Of a DNA stretch of 64,000 nucleotides, positions 6,536-47,148 are shown piece by piece (positions within the stretch are counted from its first letter, which is position 1; each line of letters begins with the position of its first letter). Made by a program: the position numbers and the translations under genes. The stretch comes from Corallococcus silvisoli (lineage in GTDB: Bacteria > Myxococcota > Myxococcia > Myxococcales > Myxococcaceae). A model generated the notes under the pieces. It made no database searches. It was not told where the DNA came from and saw only the letters and a list, made by a program, of their open reading frames with translations. The stretch lies in the NCBI RefSeq assembly GCF_009909145.1, contig NZ_JAAAPJ010000005.1:464470-528469 (forward strand), in the 5' to 3' direction.

Positions 6536-6572
6536 AAAAAGGCCCCCTGGTTTCCCAGAGGGCCTTTATTTT
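6536..6572. terminator. GC-rich hairpin (GGCCCCCTGG-TTTC-CCAGAGGGCC) flanked by A-tract and T-tract; bidirectional intrinsic terminator downstream of tRNA-Gly
   Basis: The inverted repeat has one mismatch. On the plus strand it is followed by TTTATTTT, and on the minus strand reading by an A-run. Confidence 0.4.
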
Positions 6573-6581
6573 GGAGCGGGA

Positions 6582-6656
6582 AAAGGGATTTGAACCCTCG
6601 ACCCTCGCCTTGGCAAGGCGATGCTCTACCGCTGAGCTATTCCCGCATCAGGACTG
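6582..6656 (-). tRNA. tRNA-Gly (anticodon GCC)
   Basis: Reverse complement is GCGGGAATAGCTCAGCGGTAGAGCATCGCCTTGCCAAGGCGAGGGTCGAGGGTTCAAATCCCTTTTCCCGCTCCA. It folds as a canonical cloverleaf with a 7-bp acceptor stem, D arm GCTC/GAGC, anticodon loop TTGCCAA (GCC), T arm GAGGG/CCCTT and an encoded CCA. Confidence 0.9.
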
Positions 6657-28543: not shown

Positions 28544-30262
28544 CTAGCAGTCCACCGGCCCTTTCAAGCCAGTGACCGTGGCTTCGATTTCTTCACACCC
28601 GCCCAGCGTCTGGGCGCCGTGGGCCGCCAGCTTGATGCCCAGCACGTCCCCCACCGCGACGTCCGCCACGGAGCGCACCACCCCTCCGTCCTTCTGTCGG
28701 AACGTCACCGCGTAGCCGCGCGACATCACCTTCAATGGGCTGAGGGCGTCCAGCCGTCCCCCCAAACGTCCGAAATGCGTCTGCGCGGACGCGAGCGCCC
28801 CTCGCTGGAGCTCCAGGAGCCGCGAGCGGGCCAGCGCCACCCTCGCCCGCTCGGACGCCACCCGCGCCGTGGGCGAGGCCCGCTGAAGGCCCAGCCGCGC
28901 GTCCGCCAGCGCGCCCCGCCGCCGGGTCACCCCCGCGCGCGCCGCCTCCGACAGGCGCCTGGCCAGCTTGAGCAGGTGCGCGCGCTGCTCGGACAGCCGC
29001 GTCTGGGGCCGCGCGCGCTGCAGCCGCTCCTGGAGGGCCCGCAGCGTCTCCCGGTGCTCGCGCGTCCGGGGGCGCAGCACGCGCATCATGGCCTCCACCT
29101 GTTCCGACAGGTGCAGCCGCTGCTGGTTCACCGCGCGGCGCGGATCCGCGAGCCTCGCGCGCAGCTGTCCCTGGCGTTCGCGCAGCTCCAGCACCCGCCG
29201 CTCCATGGCGCGGCGCAGGCGCCCGGACTGCGTGGCCAGGGTCAGCTCCAGGTCCGCCAGCACCGGCGCCAGCCGCTCCGCCGCCGCGCTGGGCGTGGGC
29301 GCGCGCAGGTCCGCGACGAAGTCCGCGATGGTGAAGTCAATCTCATGGCCGATGGCGGACACCACCGGCACGGGCGAGGCGAAGATGGCGCGCGCCACCC
29401 GCTCCTCGTTGAACGTCCAGAGGTCCTCCACGGAGCCTCCGCCGCGCGTCACCACGATGACGTCCACGTCGGTGCGCGCGAGCCGCTCGATGGCCCGCGC
29501 CACGTCCTCCGCGGAGCCCTCGCCCTGCACGCGCGCGTCCGCGAGCAGCACGCCCAGCCGGGGGTTGCGCGAGTGCAGCACGCGCAGGAAGTCCTGGAGC
29601 GCCGCGCCGGTGCGGCTGGTGACGACGCCGATGCGCCGGGGCAGGAACGGCACCGGACGCGGAGGCCGCACGCGCCTGTCGCCGATGAGGCCCTCGGCCG
29701 CCAGCCGCTGCTTGAGCTGTTCGAACGCGAGCGCCAGCGCGCCCTCACCCACCGGCTCCAGCCGGGAGATGATGAGGCTGTAGCGGCCCTGCGGCTCGTA
29801 CAGGTCCACGCTGCCCTCGGCCAGCACCTCCATGCCGTCGCGCAGCGCGAAGCGGATCCGCGCCGCCATGGACGCCCACACCTTCGCGTCGATGGAGGCG
29901 TCCACGTCCTTGAGCGTGAAGTACCAGTGGCCGCGCGCGTTGGCGCCCCGGAAGCTGGACACCTCGCCGCGCACCAGCACGCGCGGGAAGCGCGACTCCA
30001 CCGTCTGTTTGATCTGCCGGGTGAGCTCTCCCACCGTCAGCACCGTGCGCTCGGGGCGCGGCGGCGGGAGCGGAGCGGAGGGCGGAGCCGGAGCGAGGTC
30101 CGCCTTCGGCGCGGGCGGAGGGGCCTCGGGCGTCTTCCTGCCAGAGGCGGAGGCCTTCGCCGGAGAGGCGGGGCGCAGGGGCGGCAGGAGCGACGTGCCG
30201 AAGAGGTCGCCCTGCCCCGGCTCGTCGGCCGGGGGCGGCTCCAGCCCCTTGCGCTTCTTCAT
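28544..30262 (-). CDS. xseA: Exodeoxyribonuclease VII large subunit
   Basis: OB-fold N-terminus LTVGELTRQIKQTVESRFPRVLVRGEVSSFRGANARGHWYFTLKD. The catalytic region is RIGVVTSRTGAALQDFL...VIVVTRGGGSVEDLWTFNEE. Start at MKKRKG (ATG at 30262), overlapping the stop of the upstream FHA gene (ATGA). Confidence 0.85.
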   Translation of the reverse strand: MKKRKGLEPPPADEPGQGDLFGTSLLPPLRPASPAKASASGRKTPEAPPPAPKADLAPAPPSAPLPPPRPERTVLTVGELTRQIKQTVESRFPRVLVRGEVSSFRGANARGHWYFTLKDVDASIDAKVWASMAARIRFALRDGMEVLAEGSVDLYEPQGRYSLIISRLEPVGEGALALAFEQLKQRLAAEGLIGDRRVRPPRPVPFLPRRIGVVTSRTGAALQDFLRVLHSRNPRLGVLLADARVQGEGSAEDVARAIERLARTDVDVIVVTRGGGSVEDLWTFNEERVARAIFASPVPVVSAIGHEIDFTIADFVADLRAPTPSAAAERLAPVLADLELTLATQSGRLRRAMERRVLELRERQGQLRARLADPRRAVNQQRLHLSEQVEAMMRVLRPRTREHRETLRALQERLQRARPQTRLSEQRAHLLKLARRLSEAARAGVTRRRGALADARLGLQRASPTARVASERARVALARSRLLELQRGALASAQTHFGRLGGRLDALSPLKVMSRGYAVTFRQKDGGVVRSVADVAVGDVLGIKLAAHGAQTLGGCEEIEATVTGLKGPVDC

Positions 30263-32013
30263 CGCGACAGCTTCTCGACCCAGCCCTGGGCCTTGCCGTG
30301 CAGCTCGTCGTCGGGCGGCGTCATCGCGACGACGTCGCGGAACTTGGGCAGCGCGTCCTCCGGGCTGGAGTCCTTGATGGCGTAGGCCTGGAAGTACAGG
30401 TCCTTCGCCTTGGCCTTGAGGTCGTTGACGATGTTGGCCGCGCCGGTGTGGGCCGGGTCGGCCTGGAGCGCGCGGCGTGCGAACTCCATCGCGCGAGACC
30501 ACTGGCCGGCGGCCTTCGCGCCCGCGGCGCTCTTGTAATAGATGGTCGCCGCGCGGGTGCCCGCGTTGCGCGCCATCTTGCTGCCGCGGCCGTCGGTGAT
30601 GTCCTTGTCCAGCGCCAGCAGCCGGCTCAGGCCCTTGGCGTCCAGGTCCTCCAGCTTCTTGTAGAGGTTCCCGAACTCCGTCACCTGCCCCATGAGCTGC
30701 TTGCACTGGGGTGCCTTGGCCGCGCACGCATTGAGGATGGCCACCGCGCCAGAGACGTCACCGTCGCGGAAGCGGTCCACCGCGGGCTCCCACGGCTTGG
30801 GAGCGGCGGCCACGCGGACGGGATCCGGACGGGTCATGTCCGCGATGACGCGCGCGGCCTCGTCGTTGATCAGCTTGCCATCGCGGTGGTCCGGGAACGT
30901 CGCGAGCACGTCGTCGGTGATGGCCTTGGCCCGCTGCACCGCCTCCAGCTGCCGCATGTCCAGCTGCTGCTTGGCTTCCTTGGTGCGCTTGTCGGCGGCG
31001 TCCACCAGGTTCTTGCGCGCCGTCTTCACCTGCTCATAGAGCTGGGTGTCGCTGCTCACCTTGTCGATGGCCGCCTTCGCGTTGGCGAGCTCACCCTTGC
31101 CCAGGGCCGTCTGCGCGGTGGCCAGGTGCCCCTGGTTGGGGATCTCCCGCTCCGCCGCCTTCAGGTAGTCCTCCACGCCAGGGTAGTCCGGAGCCTGTGA
31201 GTGCAGCTCCTCCAGCTTCGCCTTGGCCTGCGCCCACTGGCCCTCGCGCACCAGGTTCTTGGCCTCCTGGAAGAGGCCCCCCAGCTGCTCGCGGTACTGG
31301 CGCTGCTCGGCCTCGATGCGGCCCTGCTCCTCCTGCTGGTGCCGCATGCGCGAGCGCGCGACGCCCAGGCCTGCGAAGAGCACCACCAGCACGCCCACGG
31401 CGGCGAGCTTGATCCGCATCCGCTTGCGCAGGACCTCCGGCGTCAGCTCCGCGGCCGCGGACGCGCGCGAGGTCTGCGGGCGCGAACGGCCCTCGCCTCG
31501 GGGAGCGGGACGGGCAGGCACCGCGCCGGAGCCGCGGCCACCCGCCGCGGACGGACGGGGACGCGGGCCGGAGGGGGCCTGCACCTTGGCGGTGCTGTTG
31601 GCGGTGTCCTCGTATCGCAGCTCGGAGTCGCCCAGCGTGATGACGTCGCCGTTGGCCAGCAGCGTCTCCTCGCTGATGGGCTCGCCGTTGAGGATGGTGC
31701 CGTTGCCCGACCCCATGTCACTGACCATCCAGCCAGCGGACTCCTTGCGCAGCGTCACGTGCTTGCGGGAGACGGACGTATCCTGGAGGCAGATGGGGTT
31801 GTCGGTGGACCGGCCGACCGTGTACTCGGCGTCGGAGAGCGCGAACTCCTCGCCCTCGCTGGGACCGGCGATGACCACGAGCTTCGCGGGGCGTGCCGCG
31901 GCGGCACCGGCGGTCGACCGGCGGACCGGGGCGCGCTGCCCGGTCCCGGAGGAGGGCGTACCGGACGTAGGCCTTCGGCGGGCGGGAGGAGGGGCGTTCG
32001 ACATGGATTTCAC
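30259..32013 (-). CDS. FHA domain protein with single TM segment and periplasmic TPR-like/helical domain
   Basis: FHA core YTVGRSTDNPICLQDTSVSRKHVTLRKESAGWMVSDMGSGNGTILNGEPI...GDVITLG. TM segment IKLAAVGVLVVLFAGLGVA. A C-terminal helical repeat region of about 330 aa. Confidence 0.7.
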   Translation of the reverse strand: MKSMSNAPPPARRRPTSGTPSSGTGQRAPVRRSTAGAAAARPAKLVVIAGPSEGEEFALSDAEYTVGRSTDNPICLQDTSVSRKHVTLRKESAGWMVSDMGSGNGTILNGEPISEETLLANGDVITLGDSELRYEDTANSTAKVQAPSGPRPRPSAAGGRGSGAVPARPAPRGEGRSRPQTSRASAAAELTPEVLRKRMRIKLAAVGVLVVLFAGLGVARSRMRHQQEEQGRIEAEQRQYREQLGGLFQEAKNLVREGQWAQAKAKLEELHSQAPDYPGVEDYLKAAEREIPNQGHLATAQTALGKGELANAKAAIDKVSSDTQLYEQVKTARKNLVDAADKRTKEAKQQLDMRQLEAVQRAKAITDDVLATFPDHRDGKLINDEAARVIADMTRPDPVRVAAAPKPWEPAVDRFRDGDVSGAVAILNACAAKAPQCKQLMGQVTEFGNLYKKLEDLDAKGLSRLLALDKDITDGRGSKMARNAGTRAATIYYKSAAGAKAAGQWSRAMEFARRALQADPAHTGAANIVNDLKAKAKDLYFQAYAIKDSSPEDALPKFRDVVAMTPPDDELHGKAQGWVEKLSR

Positions 32014-32040
32014 CGCGTCCTACTGAGGGGGGCACGAGCC

Positions 32041-35000
32041 CTAAAGCTCATGCTCATAGGCTTTTTCCAGCGCGAGATTGTGGCAGCGATGCTCGGTGGT
32101 AGGGAAGCGTCTCCGTACGTCTTCCAAGGTCGCGACCGCATCGCGTCGGCTGCGGAACTGAACCGCCCGCTGGAATTGCATCATCAACTGACCGCAGCGG
32201 TGGTCCAGCTCCGTTGAAATCTGGGAGATCCGCTCCCGTACGTCCTCGTACAGGTCCGGCTTCTCGTCGAGCGCTTCCAGGGTGATCCACGCGGCCCGGT
32301 ACTCCCGCCACGCCTTGAAGAGGTTCTCCGCGCCCACATCCTTGAGCTCGTAGAACCGGGCTCCCGCCCGCGCGGACTCCCGAGCCGAAGCGACCAGCTG
32401 ATCCGGCGGCGCCTCGGGTACCGGGATGATCTCCAGCCGGAGGTTCCAGATGCGCCACCGCTCACGGCCGGGCGGATTCAGGGCGTTGTCGAAGAGGAGC
32501 TGGTTGTTCGCGTTGCGGCGCAGGAGGCTGGGGGGAAGGACCTGCTCCAGCTCGCGCTCGGCGGTCTGGGCCGTGTCGGGAGGGACCCAGCCCAGGGACA
32601 CGCCGTTGAGGGAGAGGTTCACCTCATCCCGGGAGATGTCACTCGCCTGGTAGTGCAGCACGGCCACCGCGCGTGTGGGGGACACGAAGCGGAAGTCGAA
32701 GAGCTTGTCGTCGGCGTGGGCCCAACGCACGCCATCGCCCAGGCCGAAGGAGTCCGTCACCGGCTCCAACCCCAGCTTGAACGGCTCACGGCCCGGGAGC
32801 CGGAGGCCCGCGGGGGCCACGGAGACCAGGAGGGCCAGCAACGCCAGCACGCTCAACACCCCGAGCGACGCGAAGCCGATGCGCCGAGGCAGCGACTGAC
32901 GCTGCCAGAAGAGGAGGAACTTGCCGTGCAACGACCGGCCCAGCTGACGCCGCTGCCGGGCCTTGTCGGCGGCGGATGAGGGCGCGACCTTCGCGACGAC
33001 GGTGATGGGTCCCGCGGGCACGGGCTGCGAGGAGGAAGCCTCCAGGTCGTTGACGGGCTCCGTGGTGTCGCCATCCGCCTCTGGTCGAGGATGGAGCGCC
33101 AGCGCGCGGACCTCGCCCGGTAGCAGCCCGGGATCCAGCACCGCGGGCGAAGCGCCCGGAGGCCGGCGCACGAAGGTCACCGGATCCGGCGGAGGGGGCG
33201 GAACCGACGACCCCCAGGCGGCCGACGGTGGCACACCACCCTGGTCGCGGCCGACCGCGGTCACCAGCTCGGGCGAGTCGGGCTCGGCAGGCGAGCCCCA
33301 GGACGACGGTGACACACCGCCCTGGTCGCGGCCGACCGCCGTCACCAGCTCGGGCGAGTCGGGCTCGGCGGGCGAGCTCCAGGACGACGGTGACACACCG
33401 CCCTGGTCGCGGCCCACGAAGGTCACCGGCTCTGGCGAAGGGGGCCCAACGGGCGCACCCCAGGCCGACGGGGGAGCCAACGCGGGAGGCCTGGCCCCAG
33501 GCTCATCCTGGCCCACGAAGGTCACCAGCTCTTCGGCCTCCGCGGGAGGGCCGGAGGGGACTTCGTCGTCCTGACCCACGAAGGTCGCCGGCTCATCGGT
33601 GCCGTTCGTGGGCAGGGCCCCGCTGTGGCGTACGGGCGGAGCGACGAGCGGGCTGACGGGAGTGATGGGCCGGAGGTCGAGCATGGTCCGCTCCTCCGGC
33701 TCATCCATCGTCGATGCGGGGAGCATGGACGGGGCGATGTGCGGGGACGGCTCGGCGACGAGGGATGGGACGTCCGGCGTCGCCGGGATCGCCATCAGCG
33801 TGCGTTCCTCGGGTTCATCGAATCCCGCGAGGGGCAGTTCCGGTGGTGGCGGGAAGCCGGGCTCCGGCGATTCCACGGTGGGAATCGCCATCAGCGTGCG
33901 CTCCTCGGGTTCGTCCGGATCCACCGGGGACAGATCCACGGGAGAAGTCAGGAGGCCGGCGACAGGGGCCTCCCAACCGCGGGGCGCGGAAGCAGGAGGA
34001 GGCGCCTGGGGTGGAGCGACCGGCTGCGGAGGCACGGCGGCCACGACGTTCCGGGGTTCCGGCGTGCGGCCCTGGGTCGGAGTCGAAGCCGCCGGTACGT
34101 TCCTTCGCGGTGCGGACGAGGGCGAAGCAGCGCTGTCCGCGTCACGAGGTTCAGAGAGCGTCGCCGTCGAGGACGCGCGTGCGGCGCCACGCCCCAGATC
34201 GGGACGATTGAGCGCGGGTGCGCCGACCTCGGGCAAGCCAGGGATGGCCTTTCGCCGAGGGGACGCTCCTGGCTGAGGAGGGCCCGACACAGCAGCGCCG
34301 AGCACGGGAGGCTTCGGCAGGACAGGCGCGGCGGAGGCTCCCACCCCGGACACTTCCAGCGCCGTGGAACGGGCCTGCGCGGCGACCCCGGCTGGAACAA
34401 CCGCCAACGACGGACTCCTGCCCGCCGACGAGGCCGCGCCCAGCCCGCCTCCCGACGAGGAGGACCTCCCCGGTGTCGAAGCGCCGACCGGCTGCGGACC
34501 TGGTGCGGAGGGCCTTCCCGATGACGAGCCATCGACGGCTGGCGATCCAGGCCCCGAGGCCCGGGCCTCGGAGGCTCCCCCCGGAGCAGGCGCAACCGGT
34601 CCCCTGTTTGGCGAGGAAGCCCCCAGGATCGGAGGCCCAACGGTGGCCTTGTTCGACGTGGGCGCATCGACCGCGGGCAAACCTGACGCCGACGCCTTCC
34701 CCGAACCGGGCCCCAACACGGGAGGCCCCACGGGAGCACGTCCCGATACCGTGGCTCCCGACATCGAGGCTCCCGGCGCGGAAGCCCCCAACACGGGAGG
34801 CCCCACGGGAGCACGTCCCGATACCGTGGCTCCCGACATCGACGCTCCCGGCGAGGAAGCCCCCAGCATGGGAGGTCCCACGGGAGCACGTCCCGATACC
34901 GTGGCCCCCGACATCGACGCTCCCGGCGCGGAAGCCCCCAATACGGGAGGCCCCCCAGGAATGCGTCCTGGCGCGGACGCACCTGCCGCAGCAGAGCCCG

Positions 35001-35781
35001 AAGCCCCCAGCACCGGAGGTCCCGCGGGAGCACGTCCCGCCGCGGACGCGCCTGCCGCAGCAGAGCCCGAAGCCCCCAACACGGGACCACCCGTCGGTGC
35101 CCGATTGGCCGTGGACGTACCCGCGGACGGAGGACCCGAAGCCCCCAACACGGGACCACCCGTCGGTGCCCGATTGGCCGTGGACGTACCCGCCGAAGCT
35201 CCCGGAACTCCCCCCCCCATCGAGGGAGCGCCCGTGGGTGCCCTGTTCGGCGTCGCGGCGCCTGCCCCTGGTTGAGCCGGAGTGGGAGCGCCGACCGCCG
35301 GAAGATCCGGAGCGGAGGGGCGCTTGGGCGGCGGCACCCGGACCTCGGGCTGCTTCGGCGTGGCGGGCGGAGCTTCCGACATCGCCCCACCCTTCGCGGC
35401 GGGCACGGCCATCCCGGGCCTCGGCGCGAACGCCGGACGCGCCATCGCGGGCATGGACTGCTGGTAGCTCGTGGGCGCCGCTTCGATCTCCGCGAGCGCG
35501 GCCTGCTCCACGCCCTGGGGCGACACCCGTGCGTGCGGCGGCGCGAGCACCCTGCGGATGGGCCGGGTCACATCGTCATCGTCGTCCGGCGGCATCCACA
35601 CGAAGGTGAACTCCACCGGTCCGACGGTGATGCGATCCCCGTCACGCAGCTGCTTCTCGCCCGCCAGCGGCTGGCCGTTGAGCTGCGTGCCGTTCGCGCT
35701 GCCTACGTCCTCGGCGAAGTAGCGCCCATCCCGCGCCGTGATGCGTGCATGCCGCCGGGAGACACCATGGTCATGCAGCAC
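32041..35781 (-). CDS. Giant FHA-domain protein (>=1246 aa) with 25-aa tandem repeats, TM segment and C-terminal globular domain; annotated from GTG but true start probably about 100 nt upstream
   Basis: FHA core (VKIGRTSENDLV)LHDHGVSRRHARITARDGRYFAEDVGSANGTQLNGQPL...GDRITVG. Residues 196-358 are P/G/A-rich repeats (GASMSGATVSGRAPVGPPVLGAS). Downstream are a Pro-rich region, a TM helix (IGFASLGVLSVLALLALLVSVA) and a conserved C-terminal domain of about 300 aa. The first half of the FHA domain (PILLTITQGLQVGRELAFEQAEVKIGRTSENDLV) is encoded in-frame upstream of the annotated GTG, with no ATG/GTG/TTG available. Confidence 0.7.
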   Translation of the reverse strand: MLHDHGVSRRHARITARDGRYFAEDVGSANGTQLNGQPLAGEKQLRDGDRITVGPVEFTFVWMPPDDDDDVTRPIRRVLAPPHARVSPQGVEQAALAEIEAAPTSYQQSMPAMARPAFAPRPGMAVPAAKGGAMSEAPPATPKQPEVRVPPPKRPSAPDLPAVGAPTPAQPGAGAATPNRAPTGAPSMGGGVPGASAGTSTANRAPTGGPVLGASGPPSAGTSTANRAPTGGPVLGASGSAAAGASAAGRAPAGPPVLGASGSAAAGASAPGRIPGGPPVLGASAPGASMSGATVSGRAPVGPPMLGASSPGASMSGATVSGRAPVGPPVLGASAPGASMSGATVSGRAPVGPPVLGPGSGKASASGLPAVDAPTSNKATVGPPILGASSPNRGPVAPAPGGASEARASGPGSPAVDGSSSGRPSAPGPQPVGASTPGRSSSSGGGLGAASSAGRSPSLAVVPAGVAAQARSTALEVSGVGASAAPVLPKPPVLGAAVSGPPQPGASPRRKAIPGLPEVGAPALNRPDLGRGAARASSTATLSEPRDADSAASPSSAPRRNVPAASTPTQGRTPEPRNVVAAVPPQPVAPPQAPPPASAPRGWEAPVAGLLTSPVDLSPVDPDEPEERTLMAIPTVESPEPGFPPPPELPLAGFDEPEERTLMAIPATPDVPSLVAEPSPHIAPSMLPASTMDEPEERTMLDLRPITPVSPLVAPPVRHSGALPTNGTDEPATFVGQDDEVPSGPPAEAEELVTFVGQDEPGARPPALAPPSAWGAPVGPPSPEPVTFVGRDQGGVSPSSWSSPAEPDSPELVTAVGRDQGGVSPSSWGSPAEPDSPELVTAVGRDQGGVPPSAAWGSSVPPPPPDPVTFVRRPPGASPAVLDPGLLPGEVRALALHPRPEADGDTTEPVNDLEASSSQPVPAGPITVVAKVAPSSAADKARQRRQLGRSLHGKFLLFWQRQSLPRRIGFASLGVLSVLALLALLVSVAPAGLRLPGREPFKLGLEPVTDSFGLGDGVRWAHADDKLFDFRFVSPTRAVAVLHYQASDISRDEVNLSLNGVSLGWVPPDTAQTAERELEQVLPPSLLRRNANNQLLFDNALNPPGRERWRIWNLRLEIIPVPEAPPDQLVASARESARAGARFYELKDVGAENLFKAWREYRAAWITLEALDEKPDLYEDVRERISQISTELDHRCGQLMMQFQRAVQFRSRRDAVATLEDVRRRFPTTEHRCHNLALEKAYEHEL
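34708..35196 (-). repeat. Intragenic tandem repeat array: degenerate 75-78 bp units, with three near-identical 75-bp copies at about 34708-34932
   Basis: The unit GGAGGCCCCACGGGAGCACGTCCCGATACCGTGGCTCCCGACATCGA(G/C)GCTCCCGGCG(C/A)GGAAGCCCCCAA(C/T)ACG recurs with fewer than 5 mismatches. The encoded repeat on the minus strand is GASMSGATVSGRAPVGPPVLGASAP. Confidence 0.8.
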
Positions 35782-35887
35782 CAGGTCATTCTCCGAGGTC
35801 CGGCCGATCTTGACCTCGGCCTGCTCGAAGGCGAGCTCCCGTCCAACCTGGAGCCCCTGGGTGATGGTGAGCAGGATGGGCAGAGGA

Positions 35888-36778
35888 CTAGCCCCCGACG
35901 TTCCCGAACATGAACTGGAACACGATGGGCCCGAAGAGCACCATGAACACCGTCGGGAAGATGCAGGCGATGAGCGGGAAGAGCATCTTCACCGGCGCCT
36001 CGCCGGCCAGCTTCTCCGCGCGCTGCGTGCGGTCGATGCGCATCTGCGTGGACTGGATGCGCAGCACCTTGCCCAGGCTCGTGCCCATCTTGTCCGCCTG
36101 GATCAGCGCCGTGACGAAGGTCGTCAACGACGGCAGGTCCACGCGAGCAATCATGCTCTTGAGCCCTTCCTCACGCGTCTTGCCCATCTTGAGCTGCTTG
36201 AGCACCAGCTGCAGCTCCTCGCGCAGCGGCCCCTGGCGGCCCTTCTCCACCACCTTCGCGAGCGCACCCGTGAAGTCCATGCCCGCTTCCACCGACAGCG
36301 TGAGCAGGTCCAGGTTGTACGGAAGCGCGCGGCTGATGGCCAGGTGGCGGCGCTTCACCTGATCGTTCAACCAGATGAGCGGATAGAAGAGCCCCAGCAG
36401 CATCACCAGCAGCGACCAGGCCAGGTTGCCGCCAAGGCCGTTGACGACGAAGAGGCCCGCCAGCAGGGCAAAGAAGGCGCTGACTTCCTGCAGCGCCATG
36501 ATGTCCTCGGGCTTGTACTGCGACGGCTCGCCCGCCTTGATCAGCTTGCGGCGCGTCTTGGACTCGTAGCCCGGCCACATGAAGCGCCGGTTCATCGCGC
36601 CCAGCTTGCGGACGGCGACGGAGCCCGCGCCCTTCACGCCACCCGCGGACTCGTCACGTACCTCCGTGAGGAAGCGTTCGAGGACGTTGGTGTAGAGGCC
36701 GACGCCCAGGAACGCCACCGCGCCCGCAGTGAGCAGTGCCGAGCCGCCCATCAGCAAGAATGTCAGGAAATCCTGCAC
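35888..36778 (-). CDS. tadC: Tad/Flp pilus assembly inner-membrane platform protein TadC (T2SSF domain)
   Basis: GspF/TadC-type T2SSF domain (LPYNLDLLTLSVEAGMDFTGALAKVVEKGRQGPLREELQLVLKQLKMGKTREEGLKSM) flanked by TM helices. 296 aa. Confidence 0.85.
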   Translation of the reverse strand: MQDFLTFLLMGGSALLTAGAVAFLGVGLYTNVLERFLTEVRDESAGGVKGAGSVAVRKLGAMNRRFMWPGYESKTRRKLIKAGEPSQYKPEDIMALQEVSAFFALLAGLFVVNGLGGNLAWSLLVMLLGLFYPLIWLNDQVKRRHLAISRALPYNLDLLTLSVEAGMDFTGALAKVVEKGRQGPLREELQLVLKQLKMGKTREEGLKSMIARVDLPSLTTFVTALIQADKMGTSLGKVLRIQSTQMRIDRTQRAEKLAGEAPVKMLFPLIACIFPTVFMVLFGPIVFQFMFGNVGG

Positions 36779-36791
36779 GGTGCGCCTCGAT

Positions 36792-37637
36792 TCAGATGTC
36801 GATGTTGACGATGCGCCGGATGATGAGGATGCCCATGATCTCCATGATGGCGATGATGGTCACCAGGATGTAGCCGAAGATGTGGTTCATCATCGGCTCC
36901 ATCAGGTCCGGACGCATGTAGTTGAGGACCAGGCCCAGCACCGCAGGCATGGCCGCGACGATCCACCCTTGAAGCTTGCCCTGGGACGTCAGCGCGTCGA
37001 TCTTGCCTTCCAGACGGAAGCGCTCGCGGATCACCGTGGAGATGGTCTCGAACATCTCCGCCATGTTGCCGCCCAGCTGGCGCGCGATGTTGGTGGACAC
37101 CACCACCAGCTCCAGGTCATCGCTGCCCACCCGGCGGCCCATGTTGACGAGCGCCTCTTCCAGGGGAACGCCCAGCTTCACTTCCTTCACGAAGAGGCCG
37201 AACTCCTGTGACAGGGGCGGCATCGCCTCGCGCGCCACGTGCTCGATGGCCTGCGGGAACGTGAGACCCGCCTTGAACGCGTTGGCCATGGCCTGCAGCG
37301 CGTCCACCAACTGCACGTTGAACTTCTTGATGCGGCGCGTGCGGTAGTGCTTCACGAGCAGCATCGGCAGGAAGAAACCGAAGATGGTCGCCAGCACCGC
37401 CAGGATGGGGTTGAAGACGATGTAGCTGAGGATGCCCAGGAGGCACATGCACGCGATGTTGAGGATCAACATCTGCCGCGCGTCGATGAAGAGGAACATG
37501 TCGCTCAAGTCGTTCATCGACTTGGCGACGTAGCGCTCCTGGTACTGCTCATACGCCTTCGACAGGACGCTGAAGATCACCAGGCTGAAGAAGAACACCG
37601 AGCCGGTGACGAGAAGGAGGACGATACCTGCGAGCAT
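36792..37637 (-). CDS. tadB: Tad/Flp pilus assembly inner-membrane platform protein TadB (T2SSF domain)
   Basis: T2SSF domain (LVDALQAMANAFKAGLTFPQAIEHVAREAMPPLSQEFGLFVKEVKLGVPLEEALVNMGRRVGSDDLELVV) with N- and C-terminal TM helices. 281 aa, 13 nt upstream of tadC. Confidence 0.85.
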   Translation of the reverse strand: MLAGIVLLLVTGSVFFFSLVIFSVLSKAYEQYQERYVAKSMNDLSDMFLFIDARQMLILNIACMCLLGILSYIVFNPILAVLATIFGFFLPMLLVKHYRTRRIKKFNVQLVDALQAMANAFKAGLTFPQAIEHVAREAMPPLSQEFGLFVKEVKLGVPLEEALVNMGRRVGSDDLELVVVSTNIARQLGGNMAEMFETISTVIRERFRLEGKIDALTSQGKLQGWIVAAMPAVLGLVLNYMRPDLMEPMMNHIFGYILVTIIAIMEIMGILIIRRIVNIDI

Positions 37638-37715
37638 GGGCGCGAATCCCCGGGGGAAGAGGGAGGGGTCGGCGGGGCCGCTTCACCCGTGAGGGAAGCG
37701 GCCCCACGCGGCGGA

Positions 37716-38531
37716 CTACGGCGAGCCAGCCGCCGACTTGTCGCTGCCGCCACCCTTGATGATCTGGATGATCTCCCGGCGCTTCTGCTCCAGCACGCGG
37801 GTGCGCTCGCCGGACAGCAGCGTGCTGATGGTCGCGCGGCCGCGCTCCTCGATGAGGTCCACGTCGTCCTCGTTGCGCAGCGACAGGGTCAGCTGTCCGA
37901 GCTCCGCCGCCAGCACCAGGATCTCCGCCTCTTCCGGCAGCACCATCAGCGACACGTTGTTGTAGTCGCGCTGGTTCTCCGGGATGAGGTTGATGTTCGT
38001 GGTGCCGGTGATCTTGCCCGTGGCGACCACGATGATGTTCTGCAGCAGCGTCACCGCGACGCTCTCATCCGTCTGCGGATCGCGGAACGTGCCGATGATG
38101 TCCACGTGGTCGTTGGGACGGATCCACCCGCCCACGGCCGTGGTCAGCTTCGCCTCGATGGTGATGGCGCGCGCCTTCTTCTGCACCTTCGTCGACAGGC
38201 GCTCGGCGGCCTTCGTCGTCTCGAACTGGCTCCAGAGGATGGGGTCGCCGGCCTGCAGCGCCACGAGCACCTTCTGGTTCACGATGTAGTTGGCGGAGTC
38301 CGGCTTCACCACCGACGAGGTGACGAACTGCTCCGGCACGGAGCGCTGGGAGATCATCTCGTACGTGATGACCGACCCCTCGGGCATGTCCTGGCCCGCC
38401 ACCACCACGGGCACCAGGTTCCACCCGCGACGCACATCCGATTCCTTCTTCTTGATGGCCGAGTAGGCCACGATGCCGGCGAGCAAACCGAGCACCAGCG
38501 CGACGACGAGCGGGGTCTTACCCTTCAACAT
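37716..38531 (-). CDS. cpaB: Flp pilus assembly protein CpaB/RcpC (SAF domain)
   Basis: N-terminal TM anchor LVVALVLGLLAGIVAYSAI, then a SAF-like and RcpC beta region (VPVVVAGQDMPEGSVITYEMI...). 271 aa. RBS GGAGGA located 7 nt upstream. Confidence 0.85.
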   Translation of the reverse strand: MLKGKTPLVVALVLGLLAGIVAYSAIKKKESDVRRGWNLVPVVVAGQDMPEGSVITYEMISQRSVPEQFVTSSVVKPDSANYIVNQKVLVALQAGDPILWSQFETTKAAERLSTKVQKKARAITIEAKLTTAVGGWIRPNDHVDIIGTFRDPQTDESVAVTLLQNIIVVATGKITGTTNINLIPENQRDYNNVSLMVLPEEAEILVLAAELGQLTLSLRNEDDVDLIEERGRATISTLLSGERTRVLEQKRREIIQIIKGGGSDKSAAGSP

Positions 38532-38614
38532 GGTTCAAGGTCCTCCAGAACGGTGGGGCGCCGTCGTGGCGGCAGGACTGCTTTGGACGAGGGGGCAATG
38601 CCAGGGCGCGAACG

Positions 38615-38672
38615 AGTGAAGATGTTAGCCATGCCCCAGAGCAGGTGTCAAAACCACCTCTCGTGACAAAGC
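38615..38672 (-). promoter_or_regulatory. Candidate promoter/operator upstream of cpaB: TTGACA-like -35 inside a TGTCA-N13-TGACA inverted repeat, with a TAACAT -10-like hexamer 18 nt downstream
   Basis: The minus-strand sequence reads CTTTGTCACGAGAGGTGGTTTTGACACCTGCTCTGGGGCATGGCTAACATCTTC. It lies in the only sizeable non-coding gap (about 230 nt) inside the Tad block, between the pilin and cpaB. Confidence 0.25.
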
Positions 38673-38760
38673 GGAATCCCTGGACGCCTGGGAGGCCGCG
38701 GCGCCTGTCCACCCCCGGGGGGACGGCGCGAAACGCGGCCGGATCCATGGCCTCCGTCCC

Positions 38761-39063
38761 TCAGGGGAACGGCAGGTTCAGCACGAAGTAGAACGAGTCG
38801 TAATAAATCTGGTACGCCTCGAGGAAGAGGTCGATGACGTTGGTCTGCTTGTCCTCGCTCCAGCGGACCTTCACCGTGGCGCCGACGACGAGCGCGACGA
38901 TCAACACCCAGTTGATCATCGAGTACTCCACCATCGCCTGGCCACGGCGGGCCCTGCGCGGGGAGCGCTTCGACGACTTCCGGGGAGTGTTCACGGGGGG
39001 ATGATCCACGTCCGGCCTCATGGTCGCATCATCCACGGCCCGGGGGAGCGCCGCATCGGTCAT
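38761..39063 (-). CDS. Flp-type (type IVc/Tad) prepilin with unusually long basic leader
   Basis: The prepilin peptidase motif is G/XXXXEY in RRARRG-QAMVEYSMINWVLIVALVVGATV, with E at +5 and Y at +6, followed by a hydrophobic helix. The mature part of about 59 aa (…KVRWSEDKQTNVIDLFLEAYQIYYDSFYFVLNLPFP) is pilin-sized. The leader is 27-41 aa depending on start (MTDAALP or MRPDVDH). Confidence 0.6.
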   Translation of the reverse strand: MTDAALPRAVDDATMRPDVDHPPVNTPRKSSKRSPRRARRGQAMVEYSMINWVLIVALVVGATVKVRWSEDKQTNVIDLFLEAYQIYYDSFYFVLNLPFP

Positions 39064-39101
39064 GTGGACCGTCGCCGGAGAAAGCGCGGCGGCCCCCTCC
39101 C

Positions 39102-40547
39102 CTATTCCGTGGGCGCCGGGGCGCTGGCGGGCAGCTTCGTGCTGGCGGCGGGCGCCATGATGGGCGCGGCCTTGCGCATGCGGCGCTGGGCCATCTGGGC
39201 GGCGCCGGACTCGGGGGCTTCGTGGACGACCTGGGCGCAGACGACCGCGGCGGCGTCGCTCTGGCCCTGAGCGGACTCCGAGTCACACAGCCGCGAGAGC
39301 AGGTCCAGCCGCTCACCGCCACTGGGTCCGGCCGCGAGCGCGGCGCGCAGCAGCTGGGCCTCCCGGACGCGATCTCCCTGGCTCGCGGCGGCTTGCGCCT
39401 GACGGGCCAGCTCGCGCGACGTCATCGCTCCGGCCGGGGGCTGCTTCTCCATGGGCTTGGGCTTCGCGGCCTCCGCGCGTGCCGATTCCTTCACCGGTTC
39501 GGCGACCGCGCGGGCCGGGCCCGGGGCCAGCTTCGAGGCGCTGACCGCGCCGGTGGCGGAAGGCGTCGCGGGCGCGGCCTGCGCCATGGGCGCCGAGGCC
39601 ACCGGCGCCGGAGGCGGCGGCGACGCGGCCTCTCCCATGGCGGCATCGTCGGACGCGAGCCCGCGCCCGTAGGACGCACCGCCCAGCCGCAGTGAGTCGC
39701 GCTTCGCGACCTGGGCCTTGTCCGTGCCTCCCCCTGCCTGGTCGAACGCGGAGTCCGAGGTGGAGCGTGCGTCCTTCCCGCCATACACGGCGCCGGCCGC
39801 CTCTTCCTTCGGGGCCTGTGCCGGCTCGAGCGCCGCGAACTCGCCGTCCGCGTCCTGGGCCTTGGACAGCTTCTTCGTGGGCGCGGGCCCCTCGCGTCGG
39901 CGCTCCAGCATCGCGCCTCCACCGCCCGCGTTCATCCAATCCGACGGACGGCCCGCGGCATTGCCCTTGAGCTGCGCATCCGCCTGATTCCGTGCGGGCG
40001 CGTCTTTCAGCGCCTCGGAGGCCGGAGCCGCCGCCAGCAGGTCATCGCTCCGCGGGGTGTAACTCCTCCCCATCGGCGCGGGCGCGGAGGCGGGCGCGGA
40101 CTTCGGCTCGCGCTTGCCCAGCGTGCGGGTCTCATCCTCCGCCGGGGCCCTCGCGGGGCTCGCGGTCTTCTGCGCCAGGTTCGGCTCCAGGTGGAGGCCC
40201 TCGTTGACCTCCAGCGACAGGATGCCGAAGGTGCTCACCGTGGCCAGGCCCACCGCGGGCAAGAGCCAGCGGCGCCAGCGCGAGGGCTTCGGCTCCGGCC
40301 CCGCGGAGGCGCGGCGCGCGGACTGCTGGGCGTACGCGAGCAGCGACTCCAGGCCCGCGTCCGGCGCGGGTTCGGTCGACAGCTGCGCCATGGTGGTGCG
40401 CACGCCGCGGATGTCCGCCAGCGCCTTGGAACAGCGCACACAGCCCTGGACGTGCTGCTCCAACGCCTGGGCCTCCGTCGCCGGAAGCTCGCCGTAGGCG
40501 AAGTCGAGGAGCCGGTCCTCGTGCGCGTGAGCATTCTGGGCACTCAT
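39102..40547 (-). CDS. Anti-sigma factor (zf-HC2 type), single-pass membrane protein with long low-complexity periplasmic region
   Basis: Start MSAQNAHAHEDRLLDFAYGELP. Zinc-finger anti-sigma motif HVQGCVRCSKALADI (H-x3-C-x2-C). TM segment WLLPAVGLATVSTFGILSL. The start overlaps the stop of the upstream ECF sigma gene (ATGA). The 155-aa N-terminal extension in the ORF track is rejected. Confidence 0.7.
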   Translation of the reverse strand: MSAQNAHAHEDRLLDFAYGELPATEAQALEQHVQGCVRCSKALADIRGVRTTMAQLSTEPAPDAGLESLLAYAQQSARRASAGPEPKPSRWRRWLLPAVGLATVSTFGILSLEVNEGLHLEPNLAQKTASPARAPAEDETRTLGKREPKSAPASAPAPMGRSYTPRSDDLLAAAPASEALKDAPARNQADAQLKGNAAGRPSDWMNAGGGGAMLERRREGPAPTKKLSKAQDADGEFAALEPAQAPKEEAAGAVYGGKDARSTSDSAFDQAGGGTDKAQVAKRDSLRLGGASYGRGLASDDAAMGEAASPPPPAPVASAPMAQAAPATPSATGAVSASKLAPGPARAVAEPVKESARAEAAKPKPMEKQPPAGAMTSRELARQAQAAASQGDRVREAQLLRAALAAGPSGGERLDLLSRLCDSESAQGQSDAAAVVCAQVVHEAPESGAAQMAQRRMRKAAPIMAPAASTKLPASAPAPTE

Positions 40548-41191
40548 CCCGCCACCGTCCTTCCATCCTCCGACAGGTCGCCATCCACACCCAGCTCGCC
40601 CAGGCGGCGGCGCAAGCCCTCCAGCGCGTAACGCATCCGGCTCTTCACCGTGTTTTCGGACACGCCCGTCACCTCGGCGATCTCCTTGAACGGGATGCCG
40701 CTGTACTCCCGCAGCACGAACACCTCGCGCTGCTCCTCCGGCAGCCCCGCGAGGGCCCGCTCCAGCAGGGGCCGCAGGCGCGCGTTGTGCGCGCCGCGCT
40801 CCGGACTGGCACCGGCGTCCGGCAGCCCCTCGCCCAACGGACGTCCCTCGTCCCCGTCCGCACCGGCCGCGGGGGCCTCCAGGGACGTCGCCTGGCGGTA
40901 GCTCTCTTTGCGCGTGCTGTCCACGCAGAGGTTCCTCGCGATGGTGTACAGCCAGGTCGTGAACCGGGCCTTCGGCGCGTATTCCCGGGCACTGCGGACC
41001 ACCTTGAGCCACGTCTCCTGCAGCACGTCCTCCGCCCGCGCCCGGTGCCCGACGAAGCGCAGGATGAAGTTGAACACCGGCGCGCGGTGCTTTCGCACCA
41101 GCGCCTCGAACGCACGCGCGTCTCCCGCCTGGAAGGCGAGCATCAGATGCTCGTCTGAGGTTTCGGGTGCCAAACTTCCCCCAGTGCCCAT
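40544..41191 (-). CDS. ECF-type RNA polymerase sigma-70 factor
   Basis: Sigma70 region 2 (FEALVRKHRAPVFNFILRFVGHRARAEDVLQETWLKVVRS...FTTWLYTIARNLCVDSTR) and region 4 (LPEEQREVFVLREYSGIPFKEIAEVTGVSENTVKSRMRYALEGLRRRL). The start is ambiguous (41191 or 41224). Confidence 0.8.
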   Translation of the reverse strand: MGTGGSLAPETSDEHLMLAFQAGDARAFEALVRKHRAPVFNFILRFVGHRARAEDVLQETWLKVVRSAREYAPKARFTTWLYTIARNLCVDSTRKESYRQATSLEAPAAGADGDEGRPLGEGLPDAGASPERGAHNARLRPLLERALAGLPEEQREVFVLREYSGIPFKEIAEVTGVSENTVKSRMRYALEGLRRRLGELGVDGDLSEDGRTVAG

Positions 41192-41255
41192 GAAGCCACG
41201 GGTGCCATCCCCTTCGCCGCCCACCGCCTGTAACGGACAGCCGTGCGCGAAAGGT

Positions 41256-41669
41256 CTATTCCGGCCGTGGCCGCCGGTAAGTGGCGAGAATGACAGGGAC
41301 CGCCACCCCTGTCACCAGAAGTGCCTGCGCCAACAGCACCGCGGGGAGCGGGTGCTGCACGTGGACATGCAGCGAGCGGCCAAGCCCCGCCCCCAATAGG
41401 ACGCCCGTCAGCGTGCGCACCGCGTTGGAACCCGACGCGGGCCGGAACCGCCCCACCGCCCAGTCCAGCAGCGCGGGCAGCGTGAGGCCCAGTCCCACCG
41501 GGACCTCCCACGACCACTGGAGCGGCGCCTTCAGCGCGAACAGCCCCAGGAAGACGGCGGCGAGCACCGGGTACGTGCCCAGGCATCGCGCGCACACGCG
41601 CACGCCCGCGAGCACATAGGTGCGGTTGTATTCATCCGGGTGATGATGGCTGAGCCAGAACACCGGCAC
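41256..41669 (-). CDS. DUF2085-like small membrane protein (CxxC, 3-4 TM)
   Basis: [44 protein letters not shown] matches the DUF2085 pattern of conserved H-rich segment, C-x-R-C and TM helices. The start is uncertain (GTG near 41669). The ORF-track N-terminus overlaps the upstream ABC gene and is rejected. Confidence 0.45.
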
Positions 41670-42683
41670 CTCCTCCGGACGCGGAGACAGTGGGGGTTTC
41701 CCACGCGGGACGGGCGTCCCCCTCCGCCAGGAAGCACGCCGCGGCGTGGCCTCCCCCCAGCGGGTACAGCGGGGGCGACTCGCGCCGGCAGCGCTCCATC
41801 GCGTGGGGACAGCGTGGGTGGAACGCACAGCCGGCGGGCGGAGACAGCGGCGAGGGCGGCTCCCCCGGCAGCAACAGCCGGGCGCGAGGCCGCTCCGGAT
41901 CCGGCACCGGCACCGCGGACAACAGGGCCTGCGTGTACGGGTGGCGCGGCCCGGAGTACAGCGCGCGCGACGGCGCCACCTCCACGATGCGGCCCAGGTA
42001 CATCACCGCCACGCGCGTGGACACGTACTCCACGATCTTCAGGTCGTGCGCGATGAAGACGTAGGTGAGGCCGCGCTCGCGCTGCAGGTCCACCAGCAGG
42101 TTGACGATCTGCGCCTGGATGGAGACGTCCAGCGCGCTGATGGGCTCGTCCGCCACCACCAGCTCCGGGCGCAACGCGATGGCACGTGCAATGCCGATGC
42201 GCTGGCGCTGGCCCCCGGAGAACTCGTGCGGGTAGCGGTGCCGCGCCTCGCGGGGCAGGCCCATGGCGTCCAGGAGCGCCAGCACCTCGTCCTCGCGTGC
42301 CCGGCCCTTCGCGAGCCCGTGGATGGCGAAGGGCTCCGCGAGGATGTCCCCCACCGTCATGCGCGGGTTGAGGGACGCGTACGGATCCTGGAAGACCAGC
42401 TGCATGCGGCGGCGCAGCGGCCGCAGCTCGCGCTGCGACAGGCCGGTCAGCTCGCGCCCCTCCACGCGGATGGAGCCGGACGTCGGGTCGATGAGGCGCA
42501 GGAGCGCGCGCCCCAGGGTGCTCTTGCCGCAGCCGCTCTCCCCCACCAGGCCCAGCGTCTCACCCCGGGCGACCTCGAAGGACACGCCGTCCACCGCGCG
42601 CACCGTGCCGCGCGTGCGCCCCAGGAAGCCGCCCCGCACCGGGAAGTGCACCTTCAGGTCGCGCACCTGGACCAGCGGCTCGC

Positions 42684-43702: not shown

Positions 43703-43706
<4 letters not shown>

Positions 43707-44704
43707 TTCTGGGCCAGCTCCTCCAGGAACTCCGCCTCCTGGATGAGCCCCTTGCGGATGAGCAGGCGGATGAGGCTCGCGACCATGCGCGCGGGCTTCA
43801 CCTTCTCCGTGTCCAGGCTGGCCTCCTCGCCGCGAGAGATGCGGTCGATGTCGTCCAGCACCGCCAGGTCCTCCTCGGAGAAGTCCGGCTTGGGCGTGAG
43901 CGCCACCGACGGCTTCACGCCCTGCGCGGCGCCGCCGAAGAGCACCACCGGCACGCGCGGCTTGTTGGGATCCGCGTCCGCCTCCGAGGGCGGCGGCGGC
44001 GGCGGGGGCGGAGGCCTCGCGGCGGCGGGGGGCGGCGGGGGCCTGGCGGCGGGCCGGGGCTTGGAGCCCAGGATGTCCTCCAGCACCTCCGCGCCGTCCG
44101 CGGAGGACTCGTGGGGCGGCGGCGGGGGCAGGTCCCAGTCCAGAGGCGGAGGCGCGGGCGGGCGCGCCGACGAGGGACGCGCGGCGGCGGGCGCCGGCGT
44201 CGACGGCAGGATGTCCGGCGAATCGTCCTCGTCCATGTCCATCGGTTCTGCCTCCACGATGTCCAGGGGCTCTCCCCGGCCGCGCGCGAGCGCCTGCTCC
44301 AGGTCGTCTGGAGCGGCGACAAAGACCTTGAGCTGCTTGCGCAGTTGGAAGCGCAGCTGGTCCACCAGGTTCAGGTTGCCCGGGTCCTCCACCGCCACGT
44401 GGAGCTTCTCGCTGCGGCCGTCCTGCTCCAGCGCGAAGAGCAGCACGCGCTGCTCGGTCTGGAAGTCCATGGACACCAGCGAGGACACCGCGTGCGGGAT
44501 GTACTCGGGGATCTCCACGAAGGGCAGCTCGTGCTGCGCCGCCAGCGCCCGCGCGATGTCCCGGCCGGTGCACAGGCCCATGGACACCAGCACCTCGCCC
44601 AGCTTGCGGCCCTGGCCGCGCCGTCCGGAGGCCAATGCCTGCTTCACCTGCTCGTCCGTGACCACGCCCGCCTGGACGAGGAGTTCACCAATCTTCTTGC
44701 GCAT
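43703..44704 (-). CDS. GspE N-terminal (T2SSE_N / MshEN-like) domain protein with long Pro-rich tail
   Basis: [63 protein letters not shown] is the canonical T2SSE_N helical hairpin found at the N-terminus of GspE/MshE ATPases. No ATPase domain follows, only a P/A-rich low-complexity region of about 120 aa and a short C-terminal helix. Confidence 0.65.
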
Positions 44705-44713
44705 GGCCGGGGG

Positions 44714-45469
44714 CTACCGCTTGACCTTGGCGAGGTATTCCTCGCGGGAAAAAACGCCCTTCTCGATGAGCAGCTCCACCATGGCCTTGAGCGCCGCGAC
44801 CTCCTTGCGCTGCACGTCCTCCACGCTCTTGAGCAGCTCCGCGGGACTTCCGGAGGCCGCCGCGCGAGGCGCCTCCGCGGGAGGCGGCGGACGGGCCGGC
44901 GCGGGGGCGGGACGGGCGGGCGCGGACGCAGCGACCGCGGCGGCCGGGTCCAGGTCCTTGAGGTTCTTCACGACGGTGCGGCCCTGGGCGTCCACCACCT
45001 TGAAGTTGGTGTCCGCGTCCTCCAATTCCGCCGACTCCTCGTAGAGGCGCGCGAACGCCCGCGCCACGGACGTGCGCCCCGCCACGTTGGCCACGATGCG
45101 GCACTTGGACAGGGCCCGCAGCTCGTCCAGCACCCGCACGTTGAGCGGATCCGACATCGCGACCACCAGCGTCTTGCCGTCGTCGCGCAGCTGCAGGGGC
45201 ACGACAGAGAAGTCGCGCGCCGTCTGCGAGGGAATCTTGGCCTTCACGTGCGGCGGCACCGCCTGCACGGCGTCCAGGTTCACCGCCGGCATGCCGAGCT
45301 GCTTCGACAAGGCGCGCACGAGGATGTCCTCGGAGACGAGGTTCATCCGGACGAGGATCTCGCCCAGCTTCCCGCCCCACTTGGCCTGCTCGGCGAGCGC
45401 CGCCTTGAGCTGGCTCTCCTGCAGGACGTTCGCCTTGATCAGCAGTTCTCCAAGCTTGATCTGTGCCAT
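44714..45469 (-). CDS. GspE N-terminal (T2SSE_N / MshEN-like) domain protein, paralog
   Basis: MAQIKLGELLIKANVLQESQLKAALAEQAKWGGKLGEILVRMNLVSEDILVRALSKQLGMPAV carries the same T2SSE_N signature, followed by a second helical region and a P/A-rich linker. 9 nt upstream of its paralog. Confidence 0.65.
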   Translation of the reverse strand: MAQIKLGELLIKANVLQESQLKAALAEQAKWGGKLGEILVRMNLVSEDILVRALSKQLGMPAVNLDAVQAVPPHVKAKIPSQTARDFSVVPLQLRDDGKTLVVAMSDPLNVRVLDELRALSKCRIVANVAGRTSVARAFARLYEESAELEDADTNFKVVDAQGRTVVKNLKDLDPAAAVAASAPARPAPAPARPPPPAEAPRAAASGSPAELLKSVEDVQRKEVAALKAMVELLIEKGVFSREEYLAKVKR

Positions 45470-46359: not shown

Positions 46360-46401
46360 ATGTCCTAGTGTGAGCCAGGGCCGCATGCCCGGTCATCCAT
46401 C

Positions 46402-47133: not shown

Positions 47134-47148
47134 GGAGACACGCCCACC

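Follow-up and report, generated by a model that had tools for sequence, protein, structure and literature searches.

A compact kil cluster II, as it appears from sequence, in Corallococcus silvisoli, with a repeat-expanded FHA protein and a neighbouring sigma/anti-sigma pair

We looked at a stretch of Corallococcus silvisoli DNA of 64 kb (contig NZ_JAAAPJ010000005.1, hereafter the window; about 71% G+C) that carries a block of genes for a machine of the Tad, or Flp pilus, type. Eight genes, all on the minus strand, fill positions 30259-41224 and were named with Pfam and NCBIfam profiles. In order of transcription, they encode an extracytoplasmic function (ECF) sigma factor, a zf-HC2 anti-sigma factor, a Flp-type prepilin, a CpaB homolog, two platform proteins of the TadB and TadC types, and two FHA membrane proteins. 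The initial annotation, made from the sequence letters, had spoken of ten genes; the eight products that it actually listed were all recovered, and no more than these. The profiles it had proposed for checking were matched as well (SAF/RcpC, T2SSF, FHA, Sigma70_r2/r4_2 and zf-HC2), with the exception of Flp_Fap. As detailed below, this block is very probably the Corallococcus ortholog of kil cluster II. Two loci, of which this is one, together encode the Kil machine, which predatory myxobacteria use as their central device for killing on contact and which was characterised between 2021 and 2025.

The core of the block consists of three genes. kilB (37716-38531) encodes a CpaB/RcpC homolog of 271 amino acids with an N-terminal transmembrane anchor, which matches Pfam SAF and RcpC as well as TIGR03177 (190 bits for a cut-off of 71). 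It lies immediately upstream of kilG, as in Kil cluster II. kilG (36792-37637) and kilH (35888-36778) encode platform proteins of 281 and 296 amino acids, of the TadB/CpaG and TadC/CpaH types, and each of them contains one T2SSF domain. T2SSF genes could also be GspF/PilC paralogs from a type II secretion system (T2SS) or a type IVa pilus system located just outside the window, an alternative that the initial annotation had itself named. This reading is hardly credible. A GspF/PilC protein would be a single polypeptide of about 400 amino acids with two domains, whereas the window encodes two separate single-domain proteins, as for TadB and TadC, and they adjoin a CpaB equivalog and are 82-95% identical to KilH and KilG. 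Moreover, no gene for GspD, GspE or PilB was found within 23-30 kb on either side.

Upstream of kilB, a small gene (38761-38994) encodes a Flp-type prepilin of 77 amino acids, counted from GTG 38994. Another upstream start, ATG 39063, is less likely because an in-frame stop comes after that ATG in a related locus (L008). Read from the sequence, the prepilin carries the cleavage motif RRG/QAMVEY (G/QAMVE, of the G/XXXXE type) followed by a hydrophobic helix, and its mature part would have 56 amino acids. No match to Pfam Flp_Fap was obtained at E<=0.01 with the 100-amino-acid open reading frame (ORF), and the KilK protein of M. xanthus likewise has no Pfam match. With the KilK of Myxococcus sp. 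Y35, the window pilin shares 71% identity (E=7e-38). KilK has been described as the adapter minor pilin for Tip1, Tip2 and Tip4; the filament itself consists of KilP (MXAN_5121), the product of a gene located elsewhere (PMC12075869). The motif on which a Flp prepilin had been recognised is indeed there, but this pilin is, as judged from its sequence, the KilK adapter minor pilin and not the major pilin.

Orthology was surveyed using the TadB-like protein (KilG) as a query and one genome per species, which gave 80 loci, all of them from Myxococcaceae. KilG identity was 97-99% among Corallococcus species and 94-96% for Myxococcus and Pyxidicoccus; it was about 90% for Archangium and Cystobacter and fell to 74-86% for uncultured lineages. 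When compared with the M. xanthus AM003 locus, KilG was 95%, KilB 92%, KilH 82% and the FHA protein with a tetratricopeptide-like (TPR) part 62% identical. In addition, the KilB of the window falls in one 90%-identity cluster with Q1D3F5 of M. xanthus DK1622, and its KilH in one with WP_120622538, which is the KilH of C. coralloides according to Herrou et al. 2025 (PMC12075869).

In M. xanthus, kil cluster II corresponds to MXAN_4648-4661 (Seef et al. 2021, eLife; Herrou et al. 2025, Nat Commun). The supplement of PMC8460266 gives MXAN_4648 as FHA + TPR, MXAN_4649 as FHA, MXAN_4650 as KilH, MXAN_4651 as KilG, MXAN_4652 as KilB, MXAN_4655 as KilK, MXAN_4658 as KilL, MXAN_4659 as TadG-like, MXAN_4660 as KilM and MXAN_4661 as a 'putative zinc-finger', MXAN_4653, 4654, 4656 and 4657 being listed as unknown. 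The gene content, order and strand of the window agree with this table for MXAN_4648-4652, 4655 and 4661. The flanks agree too: the downstream genes xseA-xseB-response regulator-ispA-dxs are common to the window, M. xanthus, Archangium and more distant loci. The bacNOP-padC genes, whose proximity the initial annotation had pointed out, were located at 14035-16974, about 13 kb from the block; they comprise bacN (16633-16974), bacO (16247-16570), bacP (15524-16243) and a padC-like gene containing ParB_N (14035-15540), all on the minus strand. All eight ORFs of the block are intact, and since their proteins are 96-99% identical between Corallococcus species where the DNA is only about 91% identical, they appear to be under purifying selection. 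Because sequence and position both indicate orthology, we conclude that the block is, with high probability, the kil cluster II of a Corallococcus. The Kil-type locus with platform, pilin and FHA genes, and the ortholog in a host other than M. xanthus, had both been anticipated from the raw sequence.

For the parts that a Tad machine would further need, about 65 candidate ORFs, several of them overlapping, were scanned with Pfam over the whole 64 kb, and a six-frame regular-expression search was run. No T2SSE/CpaF, Secretin, Peptidase_A24, TadE/TadG or CpaE-like match was found in these ORFs. The six-frame search returned three Walker-A motifs only, all in ABC transporter ATPases. The reported absence of the CpaF/TadA ATPase, the secretin, the prepilin peptidase and TadZ/CpaE from the window was thus confirmed, and the contrary possibility of a canonical CpaF-secretin-peptidase set lying next to the block found no support anywhere in the 64 kb.

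A locus lacking the ATPase, the secretin and the peptidase, three essential Tad parts, and having a pilin not recognised by Flp_Fap, could be taken for the decaying remnant of an ordinary adhesive Tad/Flp pilus locus. We consider this very improbable. The ORFs are intact and conserved family-wide, with proteins better preserved than DNA as noted above, and the promoter of kilB is conserved. The same split layout works in M. xanthus (PMC8460266), and four complete Corallococcus genomes carry the missing genes at a distance of 78-88 genes. Cluster I of M. xanthus (MXAN_3102-3108), about 1500 genes from cluster II, encodes the peptidase KilA, the secretin KilC, the ATPase KilF and KilD. The gene indices of PMC12075869 Supplementary Data 1 place kilH-G-B at 4609-4611 and kilD-F-C-A at 4689-4692 in C. 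coralloides (GCF_004104415.1), at 4842-4844 and 4932-4935 in C. coralloides DSM 2259, and at 4645-4647 and 4732-4735 in Corallococcus sp019968905; in Corallococcus sp017309135, kilG and kilB are at 6465 and 6466 and kilD-F-C-A at 6553-6556. Since the window ends about 24 genes from kilB, and kilD-F-C-A are 78-88 genes beyond kilB in these genomes, the second cluster would be expected to the right of the window end. The two kil clusters would therefore be far closer together in Corallococcus than in M. xanthus, and the 'split' much narrower.

The main difference in gene content concerns the Tip4 module. Seven proteins of Myxococcus sp. Y35 (KilM4, KilN4, KilL4, MXAN_4657, 4656, 4654 and 4653) were used as tblastn queries. 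No match was obtained with them in any of the 13 Corallococcus loci (L001-L012 and L017), in all of which KilK was found. In the window, no credible match appeared down to E=10, and traces of the Tip4 module or of MXAN_4653/4654 were therefore rejected. The anti-sigma gene and kilB are 0.57 kb apart in the window (38532-39101) versus about 8 kb in M. xanthus. The Tip4 module is present in Myxococcus, Pyxidicoccus, Citreicoccus, Hyalangium and many metagenome-assembled genomes (MAGs). Archangium and Cystobacter have it too, with everything from kilM4 to kilK inverted relative to the sigma pair. Other compact lineages were also observed (L041, L058, L059, L066 and L069-L078). Corallococcus branches beside Myxococcus and Pyxidicoccus, so that loss of Tip4 in Corallococcus is the parsimonious reading. 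Corallococcus therewith offers a natural cluster II without Tip4. Five kilLMN-like complexes have been modelled in C. coralloides DSM 2259 (tags 0620-0622, 1099-1101, 2819-2821, 7211-7213 and 7640-7642), and none of them is near gene index 4844, that of kilB.

One locus of the survey, L028 (JBLZWL010000017.1), is labelled Corallococcus terminator strain BB12-2 and yet shows the long Myxococcus-type layout with Tip4. Its KilG, at 93% identity, places it beside L024, L026 and L027, which are Myxococcus loci, and its species label may be wrong.

Downstream of kilH, the block ends with two genes encoding FHA proteins, each with one predicted transmembrane segment. The first, the MXAN_4649 ortholog (32041-35883), encodes a giant protein of 1280 amino acids. 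An FHA domain (residues 19-83) is joined by a repeat linker of about 900 amino acids, rich in Pro, Ala, Gly and Ser, to a transmembrane segment (about 1001-1031); the conserved C-terminal domain is predicted to consist of a periplasmic beta-sandwich and a TPR-like helical domain. The second, the MXAN_4648 ortholog (30259-32013), encodes a protein of 584 amino acids in which a transmembrane segment (199-222) separates the FHA domain from a C-terminal region that is helical and TPR-like. Both FHA domains score 68-70 bits, and the GR, SxxH and NG signature of phosphothreonine binding, read from the sequence, is kept in both. The order 4649 then 4648 downstream of kilH is matched in those of the 80 compared loci that reach that far, with some exceptions. 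In the Cystobacter fuscus loci L033 and L036, the MXAN_4649 ortholog is seemingly missing or disrupted, and in the most distant loci (L069-L078, uncultured Myxococcaceae) the FHA-TPR gene comes directly after kilH.

The length of the MXAN_4649 ortholog ranges from 485 to 1389 amino acids between species: the proteins of M. xanthus, Pyxidicoccus and Archangium have 485-520, those of other Corallococcus 945-1129. In the window, the linker contains tandem repeats of 81, 75 and 69 nt, at 33164-33471 and 34711-35214. This repeat stretch is also the sole markedly divergent part of the locus when compared with a public C. silvisoli contig (95.5% identity with indels, against 99.2-99.7% DNA identity otherwise). 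Judging from the sequence, the giant FHA protein is a repeat-expanded version of the MXAN_4649 protein of roughly 490 amino acids.

The start of this gene is unusual. No ATG, GTG or TTG precedes the FHA domain, so that the program-made ORF list lets the gene begin within that domain, although the frame stays open as far back as the stop codon of kilH. CTG 35883, which comes 4 nt past the kilH stop and after a G-rich stretch (start site 35881-35890, minus strand), is the predicted start codon. Where M. xanthus has its GTG start, the alignment shows CTG in Corallococcus, Pyxidicoccus and Archangium, and TTG or ATG in distant loci. On the near-identical public C. silvisoli contig, the gene call is a C-terminal product of 659 amino acids without the FHA domain, and a gap of 1.9 kb is left. 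Since the start codon is non-canonical in many genera, public annotation truncates proteins of the MXAN_4649 family, which thereby lose the FHA domain.

The HHpred label published for MXAN_4649 is 'PrgH-like', that is, the inner-ring protein SctD (PrgH/YscD) of the type III secretion system. The window protein does have an FHA domain and a transmembrane segment, but it scores only 21.7 bits with TIGR02500 for a cut-off of 86, which is one measured point against its membership in SctD. The label probably rests on the FHA domain. With TIGR03354 (TagH), a sub-threshold match was likewise obtained, covering the FHA region only.

At the other end of the block lies the sigma/anti-sigma pair. The ECF sigma factor gene (40544-41191) encodes 215 amino acids from ATG 41191, with GTG 41224 as an alternative start, and matches Pfam Sigma70_r2, Sigma70_r4_2 and ECF as well as NF009166 (268 bits, cut-off 206); the gene call on the near-identical public contig also has 215 amino acids. 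The zf-HC2 anti-sigma factor, the MXAN_4661 ortholog (39102-40547; 481 amino acids), scores 26 bits with zf-HC2 for a cut-off of 22.2. Its zinc finger is followed by a moderately hydrophobic segment and then by a long low-complexity C-terminal part. There is an overlap of 4 nt between the start of the anti-sigma gene and the stop of the sigma gene.

It had been proposed that this pair drives expression of the apparatus: as a dedicated Kil regulator, it would respond to an envelope or prey signal that frees the sigma factor and switches on the kil genes. Several observations are in line with this. Of the 80 loci, about 50 have a homologous pair ahead of cluster II, and they range from Corallococcus to MAGs with a KilG of only 74% identity; most of the other loci end before that position. 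In Corallococcus, kilK starts at most 107 nt past the anti-sigma stop on the same strand, and no intrinsic terminator was predicted between the two genes; read-through from the sigma operon into kilK may thus occur. In Myxococcus, the Tip4 genes hold the position after the anti-sigma gene, so that read-through there would enter the Tip4 genes.

The promoters point the other way. Motifs were counted on both strands of 2.79 Mb of related-locus sequence. A predicted sigma-70-type promoter, TTGACA-N18-TAACAT (38622-38651, minus strand), is found about 90 nt upstream of kilB and is the sole such site in 30000-42000. Upstream of kilB, 67 of 79 loci carry TTGACA-N17-19-TAnnAT, and the motif occurs nowhere else in the 2.79 Mb. 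Because this motif is conserved there, the platform operon looks housekeeping-driven, and kilB-kilG-kilH and the two FHA genes most likely have a housekeeping-type promoter of their own, a feature conserved across the family. An ECF-type promoter candidate, AGACC-N17-CGTT (41232-41257, minus strand), was detected directly upstream of the sigma gene, where it overlaps the stop codon of a DUF2085 gene. AGAYC-N15-18-CGTT is found at that position in 34 of the 36 loci that reach far enough (60 occurrences in the 2.79 Mb). In 20 loci, it had no conserved position upstream of kilK, kilM4, kilB or the FHA genes, and was conserved only in the upstream region of the sigma gene itself. The inversion of the kilM4-to-kilK module in Archangium and Cystobacter further means that co-transcription of the sigma pair with this module is not conserved, and our literature search found no published test of sigma-pair regulation of Kil. 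Control of the whole Kil machine by the pair, as first proposed, was not upheld by the promoters; we regard it as possible and rather unlikely. As far as the motifs indicate, the sigma/anti-sigma operon most likely autoregulates.

Other regulatory elements were looked for in the same region. A terminator after kilK (38690-38770) was rejected, as the fold was no better than shuffled sequences (z = -0.9) and none appeared in the consensus scan. A regulatory RNA in the kilB leader was rejected as well, RNAalifold on 12 loci giving only -4 kcal/mol and eight pairs. Rfam found nothing over the whole window except one tRNA (6575-6646).

Further upstream, the 3' end of the DUF2085 gene contains a palindrome, TGACAG-N12-CTGTCA (41291-41314, minus strand), which about 35 nt separate from the ECF-type -35 element. 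The palindrome was found at that position in 30 loci and has 62 occurrences in the 2.79 Mb. Because it is written in A/T-ending codons (ACA, CCT, ATT and ACT) that are rare in the genome, it suggests a constraint at the DNA level, for example a regulator site. About 2.5 kb upstream of the sigma gene, past two oligopeptide-type ABC ATPases and the DUF2085 gene, two adjacent MshEN-domain genes were observed (43703-44713 and 44714-45469, minus strand), both without an ATPase domain. MshEN is the cyclic di-GMP-binding N-terminal domain of pilus ATPases of the MshE/PilB type. Beyond them, at 45529-47604, a DUF4292 (LolB-like) gene lies beside an ExbB/TolQ-ExbD/TolR pair.

The function of the locus can be sketched from that of M. 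xanthus. The Kil machine is a Tad-like type IV filament apparatus that Myxococcus assembles where it touches its prey. KilG, KilH, KilB, KilC and KilF are essential there for predation and cluster at prey contacts, where the KilP pilus is polymerised; KilK couples the minor-pilin Tip complexes to the KilP filament (PMC12075869). The window locus would supply the inner-membrane platform (KilG and KilH), the CpaB-like periplasmic component KilB, the adapter pilin KilK and the two single-pass proteins, whose FHA domain would face the cytoplasm and whose helical TPR-like part would face the periplasm. Genes elsewhere would encode the ATPase KilF, the secretin KilC, the prepilin peptidase KilA, KilD, the major pilin KilP and the Tip complexes. 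We infer from this set of orthologs that the Corallococcus machine polymerises a short pilus needed for contact-dependent killing.

According to the Kil literature, KilF and KilD also bear FHA domains, and the authors of the Kil studies proposed an analogy with the phosphorylation control of the Pseudomonas type VI secretion system (T6SS). By the logic of their domains, the two FHA proteins could link a trans-envelope signal to the phosphothreonine-dependent recruitment of the FHA-bearing KilF and KilD. By this analogy, phosphorylation-dependent recruitment is most likely their role.

In the core-only kil cluster II of Corallococcus, the sigma/anti-sigma operon directly abuts kilK. A joint view of both ends of the block would be that the sigma pair, with the conserved DUF2085 gene and the palindrome, sets the supply of the adapter pilin and hence determines which tips can be mounted, while the repeat-expanded FHA protein acts as a length-variable trans-envelope link coupling prey contact to the recruitment of the FHA-bearing ATPase. 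Taken as a whole, this view is improbable, and we mention it as a speculation.

Some observations weigh against the assignment to kil cluster II and the role proposed for it. No Ser/Thr kinase gene was found in the 64-kb window. None of the Tip4-module queries gave a match better than E=0.03 in the 64 kb, with nothing credible down to E=10. The placement of kilD/F/C/A near cluster II is known from four other Corallococcus genomes only. Finally, the literature search found no paper on the function of MXAN_4648, 4649, 4661 or 4662.

The Kil system has already been described, and orthologs of kilB/G/H in Corallococcus are already tabulated, with kilA/C/F/D 78-88 genes off (PMC12075869). The deviations seen here, namely the loss of Tip4, the closer clusters, the expanded FHA protein with its CTG start and the promoter layout, are variations within this known system. 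The window thus brings no new kind of system, and its recognition from the raw sequence was right.

When compared with known systems, the locus is closest to M. xanthus cluster II. It shares the order and strand of the genes for zf-HC2, KilK, KilB, KilG, KilH, the 4649 FHA protein and the 4648 FHA-TPR protein, with 62-95% protein identity, as well as the chromosomal neighbourhood and a separate cluster for the ATPase, the secretin and the peptidase. It differs in that the seven genes for KilM4, KilN4, KilL4, MXAN_4657, 4656, 4654 and 4653 have no homolog in the window, in the size of the 4649 ortholog (1280 versus about 486 amino acids) and its start (CTG versus GTG), and in a cluster I 78-88 genes away in Corallococcus genomes versus about 1500. 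With canonical Tad/Cpa loci (Caulobacter cpa and Aggregatibacter tad), it has in common a TadB/TadC-type pair, CpaB/RcpC and a short Flp-like prepilin with G/XXXXE. In contrast to them, it lacks CpaF/TadA, CpaC/RcpA, CpaA/TadV, TadZ/CpaE, TadD and TadE/F/G, it has two FHA membrane proteins and a sigma/anti-sigma pair, and its pilin has no Flp_Fap match. The Kil-like loci of Bdellovibrio bacteriovorus and Bradymonas sediminis, with homologs of KilB, KilG, KilH and KilF, represent the same Tad-derived lineage in predators (PMC8460266), although they are distant in sequence from the window. Finally, the H1-T6SS of Pseudomonas aeruginosa (of the PpkA/Fha1/TagH type) likewise has an FHA protein attached to a contact-triggered envelope machine. 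Unlike that system, the window has no kinase or phosphatase gene, and the TagH match is to the FHA domain only, so that the likeness is one of mechanism, by analogy, and not of family membership.

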